From an uncultured Acidobacteriota bacterium (GTDB taxonomy: Bacteria; Acidobacteriota; Thermoanaerobaculia; Multivoradales; JAHEKO01), in assembly GCA_963713825.1 (NCBI GenBank), contig CAVQNG010000003.1:553794-617793 (forward strand): a stretch of 64,000 bases of DNA, given 5' to 3'. How positions within the stretch are numbered: the stretch's first letter is position 1; each line of letters begins with the position of its first letter. This document shows, one piece after another, positions 8,427 to 63,506 of this stretch. Both the position numbers and the translations under genes were made by a program. The notes under the pieces are model-generated. The model saw only the letters and a list, made by a program, of their open reading frames with translations. It was not told where the DNA came from and did not search any database.

Positions 8427-8600
8427 TCCCACCCGCCCTCCCGAGGGTTGAGGCGGCCGGGCGTACCTTCCGGCCGATCTTTGAGGGCCTGGGGGTTGAA
8501 GCGGCTGGACTTTGTCCGTCCGGTCTCTGGGGCAGTGGGGCGCAGGTGGTGTTGGGCCCGGCCTCCCCTAAGCCCTTAAGCCCTTACCCCCCTCCCGAAA
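8427..8600. repeat. Composite GC-rich intergenic repeat (family member 1 of >=9)
   Basis: Contains GGTTGAGGCGGCCGG, hairpin CGGCCGGGCGTACCTTCCGGCCG, TGAGGGCCTGGGGGTTGAAGCGG and CCTAAGCCCTTAAGCCCTTACCCCC. The same modules recur at 9820, 14181, 33100, 44391, 52059, 56740, 57840 and 63040. The last codons of the radical SAM gene are encoded by the repeat. Confidence 0.8.
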
Positions 8601-9692: not shown

Positions 9693-9819
9693 GCCTGAGG
9701 CTTCCTCTCAATGCAACCAACCAAGACTGCACCGAATTCCAGTCAATGACGTACTTTCGGAGGTCCGTTGCGGGGCGTAGGAGCGTGAGGGATGGGCCCC
9801 CCACTGCTCAGAGAATCAG

Positions 9820-9935
9820 CCGCCGGAGTCGGAGGCTGATTCAACCCCCAATGCCCAAGAGCCGGCTGGAGGTACGACGGACGGTCCAACCCCCAAGCCC
9901 CCAAAGAGCGCCCGGCGGTGAGCCGGGCGCCTCCT
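9820..9935. repeat. Composite GC-rich intergenic repeat (family member)
   Basis: CAACCCCCAAGCCCCCAAAGAG followed by CGGCGGTGAGCCGGGCGCCTC. The same pair occurs at 44507-44560 and 56795-56845. Confidence 0.7.
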
Positions 9936-9943
9936 CCCCCCGG

Positions 9944-12900
9944 TCAGGGATTCACGAGCTTCACCCAATTGCGCATTGCACCCAAACTGCAGCCGAACTT
10001 CTCGTGGCCTTTGCCCAGATGCTGCGCCTCGATGATCTGCTCGCAAGAGCAGCCCCCTGTGTCACCCACCGTGAAGAAATCGGTGGGGCCACTCTGGAGC
10101 CGCCTCTGGTTACCACGGCCACCGGGGGCCGTCGTATCGAACACCCCGTCCTCATCCACCAGCGCGTACCGATTGACTCCCAGACGATCCGTCGGTACCG
10201 ACTCCGGAATCACCGTCGCCGGACAGACATCCACGTCATCGGGCACCCCGTCGTTGTCAGCATCGCTGGCCACGAAGAGAACAAGCCCGTCGTGATCGGA
10301 TGAGCGCAGGGGCGTCGTGTCGTCGTTGATCAGATCGACGAAGGCGTCGGCGTTGCCACGACCGAACTCCAGACCAGCCAGGAAGTCGTCCAACCCTTCA
10401 CTCGTCAGCGCATGGTCGAGGGCTTGACCGTTCCCAGTGAAGATGTAGGAGTAACGTTCCGCCTGATCCAGTTTCGCTGTCTGATTCGTCAGATCGGGCT
10501 CCACCAGATCAGCGCATGGGTTCGTGTCGCAGACGAGATTGTCGGCTGGCTCGAAGTCACCCACGATCTGGCCGACTGCGTCGACGTACCCGTCGGTGAA
10601 TTCAAAAGCGTTGTAGTCACCGATCACCACCAGGTGCACTTCAGGGTTCGCCGACTGCAGGGCCTGGACCTTCTCGGCAATGGACTGGGCCTGTTCGTAG
10701 CGCTTCTGCCTTACCCTCTCGCCACCGCTTGGATCATCGATCCCACCCAGGGAACGATTGTGGACCGTCATGACCGCAATGGAGAACGACCCAAACTCGA
10801 GCTCGAAAGCACCCTCGAGTAGCAAAGGTGGACGATCGTGCAGTAGCGAGCCGTCATAACTCAAGATCTCGTCCTCGCCGAGTTGGGTGATCTGGTCAAT
10901 CGTCACTGTGTCACGCACCATGAAGCCGACATCGATGCCGCCAACGTCGTTGCCCTCGATCAGGATCGGCGTGTAGATCACAGACGAATCCTCGAAAGCG
11001 ATGTCCACGGCCAGGTCCTCGAGGACCTCGATTTTCTCCGCCTCCTGGACAGCCAAGACATCGGGGGCATCGAGAACGTCGAGGATGTAGTCGACAAACT
11101 TGGCCTTCCGTCCGAAGTACTCGGCATTGTCGAAGAAACGCAACATGTTCAAGCTGCCCACTGTAAATTCTCCTGCCGCGCGCGCTCTGACCGGGCGCAA
11201 CACATCCGGCACCGGCCCCACCGACATCATCTTGGGTACAACCTTGTATCGACCGAAGGTGAAGTTCAGGGGGCCATAGCCCGAAATCGCCTGGCCGGCG
11301 AATACGGGGTCGGAGATGCCATCCAGGCCATCCGTGTCGACGTCGAAGACTTCGGGGTTTCCATCCCAGACGGGAAGATCTGATAGGCCCGGAAAGATGA
11401 TGCCGGGCTCTCGGAAGGGCCGCGGATTATCGACAACGAGACTGACCTCGCCGAACCGATTCGTCGGCCCTGAAGCGATGCCATCGAAGCTGACCAGCAT
11501 ACCCTCGAATCGCTCGAGATCCGGAACCGGAAACGGCTGGTCCGAAGGTGTCGTCGCATCGAACGGAGTTACTGTAGGCAGGGGTTCGCCGCCCCCCAGG
11601 ATGTCCACAGTTGGCGAGTCCGTGATCTCCGTCAGTTCGAAGTACTCCTGCACCCGCCCAATGACTCGTACGCGGTCTCCAATAGAGACCATTGGTGGGT
11701 CCACGCCCGTGTAGACGTAGATACCGTCCGAGGTATAGGGATCATCATCGCTGTCTGCGTCAGGTGTCTGCATGTAAAAGCTGCGAAAGGCCACTGCTGT
11801 GACCACGTTTTCGGTTGTCTTGACTTCCATGCCCTCATAGGGCGAGTAGAGGCCATCGCCCTGGATCTCCCAGATCTCCACCGTCGGGGGTCCCGGCGGT
11901 GGCTCGACTCCAGAGGTGACCATGAGGTTCTGAAAGGCGATGGCCTCCGAGCCACCATCGGTATTCGCCGTCAGGATCAGGGTGAGCGTTGAGCCGGTGC
12001 CCGTGAGCGGCGCGTAGAACGGGGCCATGTCATTGTTCAGCAGGTCTCCGTTCACCAGCATCGGGTCACTTAGGGTGACGATCGCACCGCCCTCCATCGT
12101 GTAGTCCTGCGAGGCATCCTCGTCGATCGAGCTCTGAAACGCCGTCTGTACCGCGCCACCGTCGATGCTGTAGCTCCAGTTAAAGAAATCATTCGCCGCC
12201 TCGAAGTCCCCCATCGCTCCCATGTCGATCGACAGCCCGAGATCCGACGCACCATAGATGTCGAAGACCCAGGTCGCAACTACGTCACGACCCGAGGTGT
12301 CGCCATTATTCGTGTCGACAATCCCGAAGAACTCGTCCGTATTCCCTGTCTTGATGATGCCGAGCGTATCCCCCGGGAAGGAGCCCGCAGAGTCGTCCAC
12401 CACCGCAAAAGGAATCGACGCCGATACTCCCCGCTGGAACTTGTTGAAACCATCCCCGGCAGAGGTGAACGGAATTGCCGGGTCGTCCGTAAACGACAAC
12501 AGGTTCTGCGACGCCGAGCTCACCATGTCAAAAGCGATGACTGTCGGTGGCGGTGGTGGCCCGACTCCCGCGGTGATGACGAGGTTCTGAAAGGCGATCG
12601 CCTCCGAGCCACCATCGGTGTTCGCCGTCAGGACCAACGTCAGCTGCGAACCGGTTCCCGAGAGAGCCGTGAAAAACGGGGTCAGGTTATTCGTCAGCAA
12701 CACCCCATTCATCAACATCGGATCACTTAGGGTGACGATCGCACCGCCCTCCATGGTGTAGTCCTGCGAGGCATCCTCGTCGATCGAGCTCTGAAACGCC
12801 GTCACTGCCGGACTGCCGTCGATGCTGTAGCTCCAGTTGAAGAAATCATTCGCCGCCTCGAAGTCCCCCATCGCTCCCATGTCGATCGACAGCCCGAGAT

Positions 12901-13936
12901 CCGACGCTCCACTGATATCGAAGACCCAGGTCGCAATTACGTCACGACCCGAGGTGTCGCCATTATTCGTGTCGACAATCCCGAAGAACTCGTCCGTATT
13001 ACCTGTCTTGATAATGCCCAGCGTATCCCCTGGGAAGGAGCCCGCAGAGTCGTCCACCACCGCAAAAGGAATCGACGCCGATACTCCCCGCTGGAACTTG
13101 TTGAAACCATCCCCGGCAGAGGTGAACGGAATCGCCGGGTCGTCCGTGAACGACAACAGGTTCTGCGACGTCGAGCCCACCATGTCGTAGGCAACCGCCA
13201 TCGGCACAGCAGTACTGACGATGAGGTTCTGGAAGGCGATCGCCTCCGAACCACCATCGGTGTTCGCCGTCAGGACCAACGTCAGCTGCGAACCGGTTCC
13301 CGAGAGAGCCGTGAAAAACGGGGTCAGGTTATTCGTCAGCAACACCCCATTCATCAACATCGGATCACTTAGGGTGACGATCGCACCGCCCTCCATGGTG
13401 TAGTCCTGCGAGGCATCCTCGTCGATCGAGCTCTGAAACGCCGTCACTGCCGGACTGCCGTCGATGCTGTAGCTCCAGTTGAAGAAATCATTCGCCGCCT
13501 CGAAGTCCCCCATCGCTCCCATGTCGATCGACAGCCCGAGATCCGACGCTCCACTGATATCGAAGACCCAGGTCGCAATTACGTCACGACCCGAGGTGTC
13601 GCCATTATTCGTGTCGACAATCCCGAAGAACTCGTCCGTATTACCTGTCTTGATAATGCCCAGCGTATCCCCTGGGAAGGAGCCCGCAGAGTCGTCCACC
13701 ACCGCAAAAGGAATCGACGCCGATACTCCCCGCTGGAACTTGTTGAAACCATCCCCGGCAGAGGTGAACGGAATCGCCGGGTCGTCCGTGAACGACAACA
13801 GGTTCTGCGACGTCGAGCCCACCATGTCGTAGGCAACGACCTGAGCCTCCGACGCGGTCGGTAGAGCCAGCAGTAATGCCATCAAGGCCAAGAACAGAGT
13901 GGAAACCGAAACAAACCTCGAGGTCTTTGCGAGCAT
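9944..13936 (-). CDS. Secreted extracellular nuclease, COG2374/ExeM-NucH-like. Order is signal peptide, 3 tandem ~214-aa domains of unknown function, OB-like module, EEP (endonuclease/exonuclease/phosphatase) domain and a Cys-containing C-terminal tail.
   Basis: Start MLAKTSRF... with GGAGGAG RBS. Signal peptide ...ALPTASEA. Three repeats each beginning AYDMVGSTSQNLLSFTDDPAIPF. COG2374-like block FRSFYMQTPDADSDDDPYTSDGIYVYTG...GDRVRVIGRVQEYFELTEI. EEP motifs FTVGSLNMLRFFD and DVLAVQEAE. Confidence 0.85.
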   Translation of the reverse strand: MLAKTSRFVSVSTLFLALMALLLALPTASEAQVVAYDMVGSTSQNLLSFTDDPAIPFTSAGDGFNKFQRGVSASIPFAVVDDSAGSFPGDTLGIIKTGNTDEFFGIVDTNNGDTSGRDVIATWVFDISGASDLGLSIDMGAMGDFEAANDFFNWSYSIDGSPAVTAFQSSIDEDASQDYTMEGGAIVTLSDPMLMNGVLLTNNLTPFFTALSGTGSQLTLVLTANTDGGSEAIAFQNLIVSTAVPMAVAYDMVGSTSQNLLSFTDDPAIPFTSAGDGFNKFQRGVSASIPFAVVDDSAGSFPGDTLGIIKTGNTDEFFGIVDTNNGDTSGRDVIATWVFDISGASDLGLSIDMGAMGDFEAANDFFNWSYSIDGSPAVTAFQSSIDEDASQDYTMEGGAIVTLSDPMLMNGVLLTNNLTPFFTALSGTGSQLTLVLTANTDGGSEAIAFQNLVITAGVGPPPPPTVIAFDMVSSASQNLLSFTDDPAIPFTSAGDGFNKFQRGVSASIPFAVVDDSAGSFPGDTLGIIKTGNTDEFFGIVDTNNGDTSGRDVVATWVFDIYGASDLGLSIDMGAMGDFEAANDFFNWSYSIDGGAVQTAFQSSIDEDASQDYTMEGGAIVTLSDPMLVNGDLLNNDMAPFYAPLTGTGSTLTLILTANTDGGSEAIAFQNLMVTSGVEPPPGPPTVEIWEIQGDGLYSPYEGMEVKTTENVVTAVAFRSFYMQTPDADSDDDPYTSDGIYVYTGVDPPMVSIGDRVRVIGRVQEYFELTEITDSPTVDILGGGEPLPTVTPFDATTPSDQPFPVPDLERFEGMLVSFDGIASGPTNRFGEVSLVVDNPRPFREPGIIFPGLSDLPVWDGNPEVFDVDTDGLDGISDPVFAGQAISGYGPLNFTFGRYKVVPKMMSVGPVPDVLRPVRARAAGEFTVGSLNMLRFFDNAEYFGRKAKFVDYILDVLDAPDVLAVQEAEKIEVLEDLAVDIAFEDSSVIYTPILIEGNDVGGIDVGFMVRDTVTIDQITQLGEDEILSYDGSLLHDRPPLLLEGAFELEFGSFSIAVMTVHNRSLGGIDDPSGGERVRQKRYEQAQSIAEKVQALQSANPEVHLVVIGDYNAFEFTDGYVDAVGQIVGDFEPADNLVCDTNPCADLVEPDLTNQTAKLDQAERYSYIFTGNGQALDHALTSEGLDDFLAGLEFGRGNADAFVDLINDDTTPLRSSDHDGLVLFVASDADNDGVPDDVDVCPATVIPESVPTDRLGVNRYALVDEDGVFDTTAPGGRGNQRRLQSGPTDFFTVGDTGGCSCEQIIEAQHLGKGHEKFGCSLGAMRNWVKLVNP
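11964..13848. repeat. Intragenic tandem triplication with a 642-bp period. Units 12581-13222 and 13223-13864 are ~99% identical; unit 11964-12580 is diverged.
   Basis: Identical antisense ORFs at 12837..13190 and 13479..13832 (offset 642). Direct alignment of 12581-13206 against 13223-13848 shows only a few mismatches. The third copy from ~11964 is about 85% similar. Confidence 0.9.
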
Positions 13937-14180
13937 CACCATTCTCCTCCCAGGCATGCAAATGGATGGATACCAGCCAGAGACACGCCTCCCGTGTACA
14001 TGTCCTCGTACCGGGTGGCCTCCATGCCTGTCTCCCTCCAGACATTGCTCACCTGCGCTGCGGGTGAGCGGATTCCAGGTGTACTACTAACTTAGCCCAC
14101 CCAGCGAAGGAGTCAAGCAGGTATTGACACTTGTCTATGGGTCTTCCTCGCGTCGACACGCCGGCAAGGGAACACTCCCT

Positions 14181-14345
14181 CCCAATCGTCCAGAGGCGTG
14201 GGTCTTGGGGTTGAAGCGTCCGGTCGTCCCACCCGGCCGGTCCTTGAGGGCTTGAGGTTGAAGAGCCCGTCGTCCCTCCGGCCTACCTTTGAGGCAGTGG
14301 GTCTCCCTCCCGTTTTCCTAAGCCCTTAGGCCCCTACGCCCTTAT
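14181..14345. repeat. Composite GC-rich intergenic repeat, same module order as 63075..63252
   Basis: GGTTGAAGCGTCCGGTCGTCCCACCCGGCCGG, TGAGGGCTTGAGGTTGAAG, TTGAGGCAGTGGGTC and CCTAAGCCCTTAGGCCCCTACGCCCTTA. Confidence 0.75.
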
Positions 14346-14364
14346 TGCCTTCAGCGGTGCCAGA

Positions 14365-14546
14365 GGTTCGTCCCGGGGCCTCTCGACAAGCGCAGCGCAA
14401 GAGCCATGGCAATGCTAGACAGATCCGGTTCGCAGGTGGCGGCCCGCCCTTGAAGTAGGGGAGGGGCTTGCCCCCTCCCACTGGAGCCCTCAAGGGGCTC
14501 CCCTACATTGCCGACGCCGTCCCCCTGCGAGCCACCCGGACGGATC
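14365..14546 (+). mobile_element. MITE-like non-coding element with imperfect terminal inverted repeats (copy 1 of 3)
   Basis: Starts GGTTCGTCCCGGGG and ends GAGCCACCCGGACGGATC. Internal CTCGACAAGCGCAGCGCAAGAGCC, GCAGGTGGCGGCC and GCCGACGCCGTCCCCC are shared with 63253..63412 (same orientation) and 51899..52058 (reverse orientation). No ORF. Confidence 0.6.
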
Positions 14547-14631
14547 TCAATTCGAGAACGGCCCCGAGACACTGAATAAGAGAACGGCCGGCAGGGGCGC
14601 CGGCCGCTTGAGGATTCTCACGTATGTGATG

Positions 14632-24341: not shown

Positions 24342-26192
24342 ATGTCTTCGCAGGAGTCTTTTGACGAACTCGAGCCCAAGATCATGGGCCTCGTAGAAGA
24401 GGCTATCCGAGAGGTCAAAGAGGAGTACCTGCGGCGCCTGCAGGACACTCGAAACGTGATCGATGAACTCCTCGGCGAGGCGGAGGAGGCCATGGAAGCG
24501 GGCGCCGTAGCTGAGGCCGATATCGCCGCTGTCGTCGCACCCGAGCCGGTCGAGCTTCCGGAACCCCCGAAACACTACCTGCCCGACCTGCATACAGCGG
24601 TGACCAATCTGGACCGTTGTCGGACCCAGGACGAGATTCTCTCGAGCCTGGTGGCGAGCGCCGGTTCCTTTGCGTCCCGTGCCGCCCTGTTCCTGACTCG
24701 CGAAGACGGGCTCCAAGGTTGGAGCAGTCACGGTTTTGCAGCGGGAGACGAGGCTTTCGAGTCTCTCATCCTCGAATACGACGAAGGTTCCCCTTGGGGT
24801 CGCCTTTCCGAAGGACGCGGGGTCATCGAACTCGATGCTGACGAATGCACGGAGCTCTGTAGCCGCATCGACAACAGTAGTCCTGTCAATGGCGCCCTCG
24901 TTCCAATCGTTCTCAGAGATCACCTTGCAGTGGCTCTCTACGCCGACCAGGACGAAGAGGACGACACGATCGGTCTCTTTGCACTGCAGCTGCTGGCCTA
25001 TGTAGCAGCCCAGGCGCTGGAGACTCTGCCACTTCGCGAGCGTTCTTCCACCGCGACCCTTCGACTCGCGACTGAAGCGCCGTACGGAGAGCCTGTCCTC
25101 TCCCTGTGGCAGTTCGTCGCTCCGCAGGCGGACGTCTCGATCGTGGAAGAGATCGAGGCGGCAGCGGAACCTGCCATCGAGGAAGAGGCCGAAGATCTCT
25201 ATGCCGCAGAACCGGTCGAGGAGGTCGAGGAAGCCTACGAAGAAGAAGTCGCTGAGGTCGTCGATTTCGACGCAGTCGAGGACGAGGTCGAGGTGACCGA
25301 AGAGGCGCCTGAGGAGACCGCAGAAGCTGTCGCCTTCGAAGAGGTCGAGGAAGCTTACGAGGAAGACGTCGAGGAGGCCGTCGACTTCGAAGAAGCCGCG
25401 GTGGCCGCAGAAGCACCGGAGGTGACCGCAGAGGCTGTCGCCTTCGAAGAGGTCGAGGAAGCTTACGAGGAAGAGGTCGCTGAGGAGGAGGCGGAAGCGG
25501 CTGAAGCCACTGACCTCGAAGAGGCGGAGGAGGCAGAAGCCGAGACGGCCGAGGAAGCGCTCGAAGAAGCGGTGGCCGAAGACGAAGCGGAATTGGCAGA
25601 GGCTGTCGACCTCGAAGAGGCGGAGCAAGCCTACGAAGAAGAGGTCGCTCGAGACGAGGTGGAGATTGCTACCGAAGCCGACCTACAGCCTGCCGAGGAC
25701 ACCGGATTCGAAGTCGAGCCGGCGGCCGAGCAGGAATGGGACACGCCCGCAGAGCACGAAGAAGTGCCTGCCATGGAAACCGCCAGCGATGAGATCGAGG
25801 CGCCACCCATGGAACCTGAGGTCGCAACCGAACCAGCCCCGGCAGTCGCCATCGACGGGGCTGAGATCAGTCCTCCCGAAGACGCTCAGGGACCGGGCTG
25901 GGCCTTCACCACCAACCGATTCAGCGCTGACAATGCCGGTGAGGCTGTGCATGAGGAAGCACGTCGACTGGCCCGCCTGCTAGTGACCGAGATCAAGCTC
26001 TACAACGAAGAGCAGGTGGAAGCTGGAAGGCGCAATCGCAACATCTACGAGGTCCTTCGCGAAGACATCGACCGGTCGCGTCAGATCTATGAAGAGAGAA
26101 TCGACGACACCGTCCGCACTGAAGCCGACTACTTCCACGACGAGTTGGTGAGGATTCTCGCTGCCGGCGAGTCGGAAATCCTGGGCCTGTGA
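24342..26192 (+). CDS. Acidic repeat protein: N-terminal GAF-like domain, ~300-aa Glu/Ala/Val-rich repetitive linker, conserved basic/helical C-terminal domain
   Basis: ATG at 24342 with GGAGGA RBS. GAF-like block (...DEILSSLVASAGSFASRAALFLTREDGLQGWSSHGF...). Repeats (AVAFEEVEEAYEE...) at 25221-25560. C-terminus EEARRLARLLVTEIKLYNEEQVEAGRRNRNIYEVLREDIDRSRQIYEERID. Confidence 0.7.
   Translation: MSSQESFDELEPKIMGLVEEAIREVKEEYLRRLQDTRNVIDELLGEAEEAMEAGAVAEADIAAVVAPEPVELPEPPKHYLPDLHTAVTNLDRCRTQDEILSSLVASAGSFASRAALFLTREDGLQGWSSHGFAAGDEAFESLILEYDEGSPWGRLSEGRGVIELDADECTELCSRIDNSSPVNGALVPIVLRDHLAVALYADQDEEDDTIGLFALQLLAYVAAQALETLPLRERSSTATLRLATEAPYGEPVLSLWQFVAPQADVSIVEEIEAAAEPAIEEEAEDLYAAEPVEEVEEAYEEEVAEVVDFDAVEDEVEVTEEAPEETAEAVAFEEVEEAYEEDVEEAVDFEEAAVAAEAPEVTAEAVAFEEVEEAYEEEVAEEEAEAAEATDLEEAEEAEAETAEEALEEAVAEDEAELAEAVDLEEAEQAYEEEVARDEVEIATEADLQPAEDTGFEVEPAAEQEWDTPAEHEEVPAMETASDEIEAPPMEPEVATEPAPAVAIDGAEISPPEDAQGPGWAFTTNRFSADNAGEAVHEEARRLARLLVTEIKLYNEEQVEAGRRNRNIYEVLREDIDRSRQIYEERIDDTVRTEADYFHDELVRILAAGESEILGL
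25221..25560 (+). repeat. Intragenic tandem repeats of ~108-120 bp (36-40 aa acidic units)
   Basis: GAGGTCGAGGAAGC(T/C)TACGA(G/A)GAAGA recurs at 25221, 25341 and 25449. Confidence 0.8.
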
Positions 26193-33099: not shown

Positions 33100-33249
33100 A
33101 GGGGGCATAGGGGCGTAGGGGCTTAAGGGCTTAGGGGCGCGGGAGGGGGGGGGGCCACTGCCCTAAAGGTCAGCCGGAGCGAGCGACGGCTGCCTCAACC
33201 CCCAAGCCCTCGAGGATCGGCCGGAGGTACGACCGGCCGCCTCAACTCT
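33100..33249. repeat. Composite GC-rich intergenic repeat (family member) between convergent hutI and the M49-like gene
   Basis: GGCATAGGGGCGTAGGGGCTTAAGGGCTTAGGGG, G11 run, then CTCAACCCCCAAGCCCTCGAGGATCGGCCGGAGGTACGACCGGCCGCCTCAAC. Confidence 0.75.
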
Positions 33250-44390: not shown

Positions 44391-44564
44391 AGGACAGGGC
44401 GTAGGGGCGTAGGGGCGTAGGGGCGTAGGGGCGTAGAAGACAATACCCAATAGCTCAAGACCTCAGTGCCCCTCAAGCCCCCAAAGGCAGGCCGTAGGAA
44501 CGCCGGCCTCCTCAACCCCCAAGCCCTCAAAGAACGTCGGGCGGTGAGCCGGACGCCTCAACCC
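44391..44564. repeat. Composite GC-rich intergenic repeat including a (GGGCGTAG)x5 microsatellite (44406..44445)
   Basis: Five perfect tandem octamers, then CCTCAACCCCCAAGCCCTCAAAGAACGTCGGGCGGTGAGCCGGACGCCTCAACCCTCAAGG. Confidence 0.85.
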
Positions 44565-51872: not shown

Positions 51873-51898
51873 GCCCTACATAGCCACCAACGAGCGGA

Positions 51899-52058
51899 GG
51901 TCCGTCCGGGTGGTTCGCAGGCGGACGGCGTCGGCTACTCAGACTGCAACGGGCGGGCCGCCACCTTGTCACGTCATCGCGCCTCATCTCTTGTGTTCTG
52001 CGATGGTCCTTGCGCTGCGCTCGACGTGGCACCCCCTGTCGAACCACCCGGACGAACC
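51899..52058 (-). mobile_element. MITE-like non-coding element (copy 2 of 3, reverse orientation) with 19-bp terminal inverted repeats
   Basis: Starts GGTCCGTCCGGGTGGTTCG and ends CGAACCACCCGGACGAACC. Internal GGCGTCGGCTACTCAG and GGCCGCCACC are the reverse complement of 63335-63390. Followed at 52095 by GGCGTAGGGGCTTAGGGG. Confidence 0.65.
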
Positions 52059-52291
52059 TCTGGCACCGGTGGTCGCATTGAGGCAGTGGGGCACTGAAGG
52101 CGTAGGGGCTTAGGGGACAGAAGACTCGTAGGTACAGAAGTACAAGGCCGTGCCCAGGGTTCGGCGTGGGGACCTCCAGGGGGTTCTTGCAGCGGAAGGG
52201 AGGATAGCCCCCTGGGGGCCCCACGGTGAACGCCTCCTTGGAAGAACGGTTTGGGTTGACGCACAAAAGGGCCGCAGAGGCGCCGGTCGAA

Positions 52292-56739: not shown

Positions 56740-56880
56740 CGGCCGGCAGAGGCGCCGGCCGCTTCTGTCCTCAAAGATCAGCCGAGGCACGCCGGCTGCC
56801 TCAACCCCAAGCCCTCAGAGAACGCCCGGCGGTGAGCCGGGCGCCTCGACCCTGACGACCCGAGCCGATAGCAATCGCTA
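56740..56880. repeat. Composite GC-rich intergenic repeat (family member)
   Basis: Hairpin CAGCCGAGGCACGCCGGCTG, then CCTCAACCCCAAGCCCTCAGAGAACGCCCGGCGGTGAGCCGGGCGCCTCGACCC. Confidence 0.7.
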
Positions 56881-57839: not shown

Positions 57840-57960
57840 GATCTCGAGACCCCTACGCCCTGAAGCCCCTGAGCCTCTATTGCCCAGGACCCAAGCCCTC
57901 AAGGACCGGCCGAGACAAAGTCCGGCCGCCTCAACCCCCAAGCCCTCATTGCCTCAGTGC
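57840..57960. repeat. Composite GC-rich intergenic repeat (family member)
   Basis: CCCCTACGCCCTGAAGCCCCTGAGCC, then hairpin CCGGCCGAGACAAAGTCCGGCCG and CCTCAACCCCCAAGCCCTCA. Confidence 0.7.
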
Positions 57961-63074: not shown

Positions 63075-63252
63075 ATGGCTAGGCAGTCAAGGGTTGAGGC
63101 GTCCGGTCGTTCCTTCCGGACGATCTATGAGGGCTTGGGGGTTGAACCGGCCGCACTCCGTGTCGGCCGGCCTTTGGGGCTTGGGGGAACAGCCGACAAA
63201 CAACCCTCGCGCCCCTACTGTCCTATGCCCTTACGCCCCCCTTGGTGCCAAA
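63075..63252. repeat. Composite GC-rich intergenic repeat, same module order as 14181..14345
   Basis: GGGTTGAGGCGTCCGGTCGTTCCTTCCGGACGATC, TGAGGGCTTGGGGGTTGAACCGG, TTTGGGGCTTGGGGGAACAG, CCTATGCCCTTACGCCCCCC. Confidence 0.75.
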
Positions 63253-63412
63253 GGTTCGTCCGGGTGGTTCGGCAGGGGGGGCTCGACAAGCGCAGCGCAA
63301 GAGCCGTCGAAGTTCACGGCCCATCCGGCGCGCCGGAGAGCGCAGGTGGCGGCCAAACCCGTCAAAGCCTGAGTAGCCGACGCCGTCCCCCGGCGAACCA
63401 CCTGGGCGCGGA
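63253..63412 (+). mobile_element. MITE-like non-coding element (copy 3 of 3)
   Basis: Starts GGTTCGTCCGGGTGGTTCG and ends CGGCGAACCACCTGGGCGCGGAC. Shares CTCGACAAGCGCAGCGCAAGAGCC and GCAGGTGGCGGCC with 14365..14546. Confidence 0.6.
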
Positions 63413-63506
63413 CCCCCACTACCAGTTTCTCGATAGGATCAAGTGGACCGATCAGCGTCCCAACAGACGCTTTCAGCTCACCAGCATCTGATCGAGGAGT
63501 CACCCC

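Follow-up and report, generated by a model that had tools for sequence, protein, structure and literature searches.

The whole stretch of DNA analysed here, called the window below, is 64 kb long and contains three copies of one non-coding element of approximately 170 nt each, which we named M1. M1 is read in the orientation GGTGCCA...CCTC, which is the minus strand for the copy at 51899. This copy (copy 2), which is the finding itself, occupies positions 51895-52067, has the standard length of about 170 nt, and is the best preserved of the three. On the minus strand it reads, from 5' to 3', GGTGCCA, the 5' strand of a helix P1, the core, and the 3' strand of P1. The GGTGCCA flank covers 52061-52067 and lies outside the inverted repeat. 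The 5' strand of P1, GAGGTTCGTCCGGGTGGTTCG, covers 52040-52060 and is the right-hand terminal inverted repeat of the preliminary description; the 3' strand, CGAACCACCCGGACGGACCTC, covers 51897-51917 and is the left-hand one. The ends quoted in that description were exact, with GGTCCGTCCGGGTGGTTCG at 51899-51917 and CGAACCACCCGGACGAACC at 52040-52058. The predicted MFE of copy 2 was -92.1 kcal/mol (z = -3.9).

Copy 1 lies at 14356-14548 on the plus strand. It is a decaying long variant that has lost part of its 5' arm (approximately 14 nt). An optional insert of 52 nt (14455-14506, plus strand) sits in its P5 loop and is predicted to form a small three-way junction with two hairpins. The loops of this insert are CUUG and UCAA, and 7 of the 8 long copies have GCAA as the second loop. 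Copy 3 (63244-63416, plus strand) belongs to subfamily D, and its 3' arm is slightly damaged by a T mismatch and a 2-nt insertion. A plus-strand gene begins 90 nt downstream of copy 3, and orthologues identical to this copy were present in L130, L139, and L209.

Block matches and a profile search both placed the three copies where they had been reported. Three independent conserved M1 blocks had exactly three matches each in the window, compared with 0-0.2 in shuffles. The nhmmer profile E-values were 1.6e-58 for the copy at 51899, 1.6e-43 for the copy at 63253, and 1.2e-36 for the copy at 14365, and the identity among the three was 74-77%. The internal blocks said to be shared by all three copies were not identical. 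The copy at 51899 reads CGTCGAGCGCAGCGCAAGGACC, and the block CTGAGTAG is missing from the copy at 14365 because the latter is the long variant with the 52-nt insert. The statement that no ORF is present held only in part: mechanical ORFs do overlap M1, and no frame is open in all 67 distinct copies that were aligned. In these 67 copies, 1-nt indels were common and the core was without codon periodicity. Coding potential was rejected on these three grounds.

Mosaic organisation of the M1 loci

Each window copy lies inside a composite-repeat locus, as had been described. The upstream partner module of copy 2 is M2, a conserved long hairpin of about 95 nt at 52142-52238 on the plus strand. The spacer between copy 2 and M2 (52068-52141) holds degenerate 8-mers, GGGGCNTA on the plus strand. 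An 8-mer array, CCCTANGC on the M1 strand, lies directly upstream of copy 1 (14319-14342), and C-rich 8-mer units lie directly upstream of copy 3 (63210-63240). Such degenerate C-rich 8-mers (CCCTANGC) usually precede M1 elsewhere too. M2 was found 25-180 nt upstream of M1 in approximately 40 of 93 copies, always in the same relative orientation. A frequent order of the modules is distal arm, M2 hairpin, 8-mer array, and M1. The distal arm repeats the 3' end of M1 in inverted form and lies upstream of M2 in approximately 15-25 composites, and its inverted repeat sometimes reaches outward into GGTCATCTGTTC(AGGACCC)n. No distal arm was present at the three window copies.

When the whole window was compared with Rfam 15 at gathering scores, only two tRNAs reached the threshold. 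At E <= 10, the window locus gave chance-level matches only; the best were sub-threshold matches of M2 to DUF3800-IV, which scored 23-29 bits where the cut-off is 60.7. A full composite from another contig, searched at the same E-value, matched no family.

Tandem arrays of the 8-mer, (GGGGCNTA)n, were located at 33102-33141 and 44396-44435, where they are G-rich on the plus strand, and at 8569-8592, 14319-14342, and 57854-57885, where they are C-rich on the plus strand. With at least four G-runs separated by 4-nt spacers, these arrays match the G-quadruplex motif. Nearly every M1 has such an array ahead of it, on its antisense strand, and some arrays stand alone. Many M1 copies outside the window (L205, L056, L014, L151, L168, and others) are followed by TACGAGAAGATGGTCATCTGTTC and then by 7-mer arrays of (AGGACCC)n. 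In some composites the TACGAGAAGATGGTCATCTGTTC/(AGGACCC)n sequence is inverted outside the distal arm, and the result is a nested palindrome with sides of some 60 nt.

A second repeat family, also abundant, occupies the same intergenic regions. It consists of GC-rich, REP-like hairpins with the linker GGGCTTGGGGGTTGA between them (families D5, D7, and D10), and was located at 8485-8499, 9841-9900, 33195-33209, 44512-44526, 57931-57945, and 63131-63145, together with flanking hairpins. Another hairpin, CGGCCGGCAG(G/A)GGCGCCGGCCGCTT, lies just past gene ends at 14585-14609 and 56740-56764 and is common in the metagenome loci. It resembles a terminator module of the GC type that has no long T run. 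The ORF at 9944-13957 on the minus strand encodes 1337 aa with a weak endonuclease/exonuclease/phosphatase match and contains, at 11889-13515, three direct repeats of 300 nt that are 642-657 nt apart and 86-99% identical; these repeats represent a recently duplicated domain array. At 25223-25702 there is a degenerate tandem repeat with units 72-120 nt apart, rich in GAG/GAA/GCC codons, which probably encodes an acidic low-complexity protein segment.

Family size, host range, and gene context

Additional copies beyond the window were abundant, about 90 of them full-length, and all came from Thermoanaerobaculia/Acidobacteriota MAGs or related metagenome contigs. A profile search over all fetched DNA gave approximately 93 full M1 copies, as well as fragments, in many distinct gene contexts. 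The first pattern used to scan genomes, GCCGACGCCGTCCNCCNGCGA, was too loose, and 107 of the 112 loci that it gave were chance matches in unrelated GC-rich genomes. The metagenome scan with the block GWCRAGCGCAGCGCAAGRRCC gave 117 contigs. Among the genomes fetched by the chance matches, M1 was absent from other Acidobacteriota and from all other phyla. Among the named genomes, a true M1 was present in only three MAGs, of which two carry the label Thermoanaerobaculia and the third the label Acidobacteriota. The viral contigs that were searched for M1 gave no match, and a literature search found no paper on repeats in Thermoanaerobaculia. As far as the data show, M1 represents a large, undescribed family of intergenic repeats of a marine-sediment clade of Thermoanaerobaculia (Acidobacteriota).

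The median pairwise identity among the 67 distinct copies was 83%, and the copies fall into size classes of about 125, 170, and 215 nt. Three copies were found in the 64-kb window and four in 24 kb of one metagenome contig. Extrapolation from this local density suggests that the copy number of M1 per genome is in the hundreds. Eight contigs terminate within M1, which is expected of a repeat that breaks assemblies.

M1 is strictly intergenic, with 0 of 89 copies lying within genes. Among the copies for which both neighbours were called, 30 lay between convergent genes, 9 between divergent genes, and 8 and 9 between tandem genes in the sense and antisense orientation, respectively. These counts indicate that M1 avoids promoters and favours the 3' ends of genes, and that its orientation is independent of transcription. 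The 465 neighbouring proteins formed only small orthologue groups after clustering, and there was no constant partner. The neighbours examined were ordinary genes, such as those for a CHASE2 cyclase, an MscS/cNMP-binding channel, a pterin dehydratase, a TonB-type receptor, and hydrolases. Near M1 no transposase was seen, either among the 465 neighbouring ORFs that were clustered or among nine neighbours compared with Pfam. Where a gene is bracketed by inverted M1 arms (GGTYCGTYCGGGTGG), only ordinary genes and nothing IS-like were found.

At the window locus, neither a sigma-70-like promoter nor an intrinsic terminator was predicted. The antisense of the GGTGCCA flank contains TGGCAC, the -24 box of sigma-54, at 52053-52067, 14356-14370, and 63244-63258. 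A sigma-54 promoter on this antisense flank was rejected because the GC element is at 11 nt and not 10, and the -12 region is unconserved. We also considered a cis-regulatory leader, in which GAGAAGATGGTCATC, present downstream of many copies, resembled a ribosome-binding site with a start codon. The leader reading was rejected because GAGAAGATGGTCATC is itself one more repeat module, with (AGGACCC)n after it, and because the genes that lie downstream are unrelated.

Predicted fold, strand specificity, and conservation

The structure of M1 was analysed in an alignment of 67 distinct copies (A3), with copy 2 as the first row. An inverted repeat of 19-21 bp was found in nearly all M1 copies. In the predicted fold, its two arms are the strands of helix P1 (21 bp), which is 97.3% paired over the 67 copies. 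The consensus fold was computed with the internal helix P3 fixed from covariation and has five helices. The P1/P2 rod of approximately 27 bp leads into a tight three-way junction, from which the arms P3/P4 and P5 extend; P2 is GGGG/CCCC. In a mutual-information scan of A3, the top pair was columns 44-108 (U-A 40, C-G 16, G-C 6) and the second-best was columns 48-104 (A-U/U-A/G·A), and these two column pairs define P3. Standard pairs occupied 91.7% of 3336 cells in the proposed structure of 68 pairs. In the control, pairing fell to 39-55% when the partners were slid by 1-3 columns. Both the covariation score and the double-sided changes were above all 500 shuffles, with the covariation coming mainly from four subfamilies and hence from few independent events.

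P5 is the variable arm of M1. It is deleted in some copies, of standard size in most, and enlarged in others. The deletion occurs at GCGG microhomology in several copies. The enlarged P5, found in 8 of the 67 copies and in different subfamilies, is predicted to form a small three-way junction with CUUG and GCAA loops. Near-invariant blocks of M1, GAGCGCAGCGCAAG and CUGAGUAGCC, are unpaired in the fold. With a conserved predicted fold, covariation, and strand-specific wobbles, the modelled M1 has the generic features by which a structured ncRNA is recognised.

The inverted repeats are not demonstrably the termini of M1, because conserved sequence continues outside both. The conserved unit begins 9 nt ahead of the inverted repeat with the invariant GGTGCCAGA. 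GGTGCCA precedes the 5' arm without change in every copy and is without counterpart on the 3' side. Beyond the supposed 3' terminus, conservation continues in many copies (CYACGAGAAGATGG).

The pairing of M1 differs markedly between the two strands. Summed over the 67 copies, the M1 strand has 326 G·U and 31 A·C in the fold as a whole, and 210 and 15 in P1 alone. Pairing between the 5' and 3' arms of 19 composites gave 59 G·U and 0 A·C, and variation in the 3' arm falls exactly on the A/G positions that face a U of the 5' arm. Because G·U wobbles are mismatches on the complementary strand, the data indicate that the fold has been selected on one strand only. The CUUG and GCAA tetraloops of the insert fall on the same strand as the M1 fold. 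M2 folds on the strand opposite to M1, with 97 G·U and 10 A·C on its own strand and a consensus fold energy of -45.6 compared with -23.7 kcal/mol on the other strand. Since the adjacent M1 and M2 thus have opposite polarity, a mutational strand bias of the region was ruled out as the origin of the G·U excess. The strand signal fits RNA and ssDNA alike, since G·T wobbles and GNA-type loops are tolerated in ssDNA.

The distal arm was also considered as the true partner of the 3' arm and was rejected. Its pairing with the 3' arm gave 24 A·C and 23 G·U, compared with 0 and 59 for the proximal arm. Mismatches of the A·C type being about as many as G·U, this pairing is not kept as a helix.

In four orthologous groups, the identity of M1 was 0.84-0.93, compared with 0.57-0.69 at codon position 3 of the neighbouring gene. 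The conservation of M1 was about level with that of codon positions 1 and 2 of the adjacent gene. Judged by these sequence comparisons, M1 appears to be under purifying selection at orthologous sites, with a constraint that is general and not universal, and gene conversion among copies (concerted evolution) could mimic part of this signal. An exception was the close pair L191/L193, in which M1 is more diverged than the neighbouring gene. The 5' arm is degenerate in one orthologous group. Truncations or internal deletions are found in many M1 copies, and it is by deletion that single copies decay. Copy 1 of the window and its counterpart in the close relative L134 carry different deletions or truncations of the same ancestral copy. 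An 11-nt remnant of the M1 3' arm, CGGAGGTCCGT, lies at 9758-9768 on the plus strand of the window, at a site where L134 has a whole M1. We regard it as the footprint of an imprecise M1 loss.

Mobility and possible role of M1

Three comparisons of filled and empty sites were available. In the first, L203, L014, and L197 have an M1 mosaic of approximately 390 nt, and L210 has 13 unrelated bases. In the second, L153 has a mosaic of 445 nt between convergent genes, and L217 has 6 bases. In the third, L134 has a full M1 and the window has the 11-nt remnant (9693-9891 compared). In L121, the orthologue of the 51899 locus, the modules are rearranged. The preliminary description had taken M1 for a MITE, a transposable element of the miniature inverted-repeat kind, and had proposed to inspect the flanks for target-site duplications and related strains for presence/absence polymorphism. 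The polymorphism was found, for M1-containing mosaics and not for M1 alone. No target-site duplication was seen as a direct repeat at any of the three filled/empty junctions. The three comparisons also gave no precise insertion or excision of the size of M1; the unit gained or lost was a mosaic of 390-445 nt, or the deletion was imprecise. In the same description, a lack of duplications, of further copies, and of an IS with matching ends was said to favour a structured REP-like repeat over a mobile MITE. Our results point to such a repeat, though extra copies are abundant.

M1 shares features with several known families of bacterial repeats. The ERIC/IRU elements of enterobacteria and the Correia/NEMIS/CREE elements of Neisseria are likewise non-coding, 100-170 nt long, with inverted ends and a long stem in the transcript. 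They are also intergenic, with size variants that arise by internal insertion or deletion at fixed points. ERIC and Correia elements occur at co-transcribed locations and affect RNA processing, and a comparable RNA role of M1 is what we infer by analogy. RNase III cuts Correia elements at the inverted repeats, and ERIC elements influence transcript levels (PMC10969869). At ERIC elements the processing is by RNase E (PMC10969869; PMC2229807). Unlike Correia elements, which have a TA duplication and an IHF site, M1 shows no duplication at its junctions. M1 is GC-rich and not AT-rich, and its predicted fold is a five-helix junction and not a simple hairpin. It also belongs to an ordered mosaic with an opposite-strand partner, unlike those elements, and has no sequence similarity to either family.

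The BIMEs of E. coli (REP/PU) and the RIMEs of Rhizobium are closer to M1 in organisation. As in the M1 mosaic, their modules have a preferred order and orientation, are extragenic and lie mostly at gene 3' ends, and vary in content across orthologous loci; GC-rich hairpins occur in the same regions. REP units are simple palindromes of 20-40 nt, whereas M1 is approximately 170 nt long and has covarying internal helices and near-invariant unpaired blocks. The criterion of a 20-40-nt palindrome fits the short GC hairpins elsewhere in the window better than it fits M1. With REPINs, which go with RAYT transposases, M1 has in common a strand-specific palindromic repeat, no duplications, and long persistence at orthologous sites in a lineage. 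A REPIN consists of two inverted REPs in one hairpin of about 100 nt, whereas M1 forms a three-way junction and has a separate partner on the opposite strand, and no RAYT was seen near any M1 copy examined.

Overall, we believe that M1 is a module of a new group of structured, REP/BIME/ERIC-like mosaic intergenic repeats and most likely acts as RNA, and we assign this reading a probability of roughly 0.55. M1 would act once the intergenic region is transcribed, by read-through or from a start inside the mosaic. By analogy with REP/BIME, ERIC, and Correia elements, the P1/P2 duplex with its compact junction may serve as a module for 3'-end protection or RNase III-type processing, and M2 may do likewise for transcripts of the other strand. 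A mosaic that worked on both strands would explain why M1 has no orientation bias and prefers convergent genes. The mosaic could have spread by recombination of modules or by a trans-acting enzyme encoded elsewhere. The tandem contexts (sense 8, antisense 9) count against the RNA model. With sense and antisense about equally frequent, a strand-specific role on read-through transcripts could apply to every copy only if the mosaic had a promoter of its own. The lack of a predicted sigma-70-like promoter or intrinsic terminator at the locus counts against the RNA model as well.

A classical MITE would be a deletion derivative of an IS, moved by cut-and-paste by a transposase encoded elsewhere that binds the 19-21-bp repeats as dsDNA, with the core as a passenger. 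Part of this signature stands. M1 is small, non-coding, and multi-copy, is dispersed in both orientations with inverted-repeat ends, breaks contigs, and is present or absent at given loci in related genomes. Classical MITEs such as QMITE, Nezha, and Chunjie (PMC10969869) similarly have many copies, TIRs of 19-29 bp, a core of 110-150 bp, and a stable predicted transcript fold, and MITE transcripts form stable stem-loops (PMC10969869). The distal arm is also in line with a MITE, in that it bounds larger composites and its mismatches are without strand bias, as for a protein-binding repeat. The direct repeats of MITEs can also fade over time (PMC10969869). However, no duplication and no precise gain or excision of M1 was seen at the three junctions, and several other features are unlike those of a MITE. 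Conservation extends asymmetrically past the repeats, the wobbles between the arms are confined to one strand, the internal helices covary, and, where orthologous copies are compared, the interior is better conserved than synonymous sites. No transposase or cognate IS was found near the copies (465 ORFs), and the identity of only 74-77% among copies within one genome argues against a recent burst. We consider a classical MITE quite unlikely. The strand-specific pairing and the missing duplications would be explained by an ssDNA mobile element, of the REPIN/RAYT type or derived from IS200/IS605, in which an HUH (Y1) transposase, acting during replication, reads the fold on one strand. REP-like GC hairpins do occur in the same intergenic regions of the window, and REPINs persist for a long time at orthologous positions, as reported in PMC3116915 and bioRxiv 10.1101/2021.07.10.451892, and so does M1. 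Yet M1, at 170 nt, has several helices and conserved junctions in its fold and is not a simple REP doublet. The ends of IS200/IS605 are read on one strand, whereas M1 and M2 fold on opposite strands, and copies occur in both orientations within 2-10 kb as well as within the 64-kb window. In the IS200/IS605-derived PATE, the subterminal hairpins are on the same strand and the ends are not complementary, whereas the ends of M1 pair with each other. No Y1 transposase gene was seen among the neighbouring ORFs examined, and we find an ssDNA element very doubtful.

M1 could instead be an independent multi-copy RNA gene with its own promoter in the mosaic, acting in trans or on itself as an sRNA, a ribozyme, or a guide/scaffold, and M2 would then be its divergently transcribed partner. 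Divergent transcription out of the spacer would agree with the folding of M1 and M2 on opposite strands, and the orientation of M1 is independent of the flanking genes. The five-helix architecture, the nearly invariant unpaired blocks, the tetraloop-capped variable arm, the covariation, and the purifying selection are all features that such a gene would have. What makes an RNA gene unlikely is the combination of a locus without promoter-like or terminator-like signals, a non-canonical spacing of the TGGCAC box to the GC element, and the lack of a constant protein partner nearby. A copy number estimated in the hundreds per genome, with decay in many of the copies, would also be unusual for a trans-acting RNA gene. 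A broader proposal is that M1, possibly together with M2, represents a new class of functional multi-copy structured RNA with a three-way-junction fold of approximately 170 nt. On the modelled fold, such an RNA might be a self-processing ribozyme or the RNA part of an undescribed mobile or regulatory system, and not a passive REP/MITE repeat. This proposal is tentative, and we hold it to be rather improbable.

Whichever role a single copy may have, the structured mosaic repeat that we favour is a previously undescribed family in a poorly studied class, and its predicted fold stands out for its complexity and its conservation. Marine sediments are rich in Thermoanaerobaculia, which have hardly been studied at the molecular level. 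Repeats of the M1 type occupy many intergenic regions at 3' ends, interrupt assemblies, and give rise to false ORFs; their annotation therefore improves gene calls and gives strain markers. By combining a complex, strand-specific, selected fold with the dispersal of a repeat, M1 is a candidate for studying 3'-end processing in a new phylum, and for asking whether structured repeats are RNAs that are useful to the host or junk.
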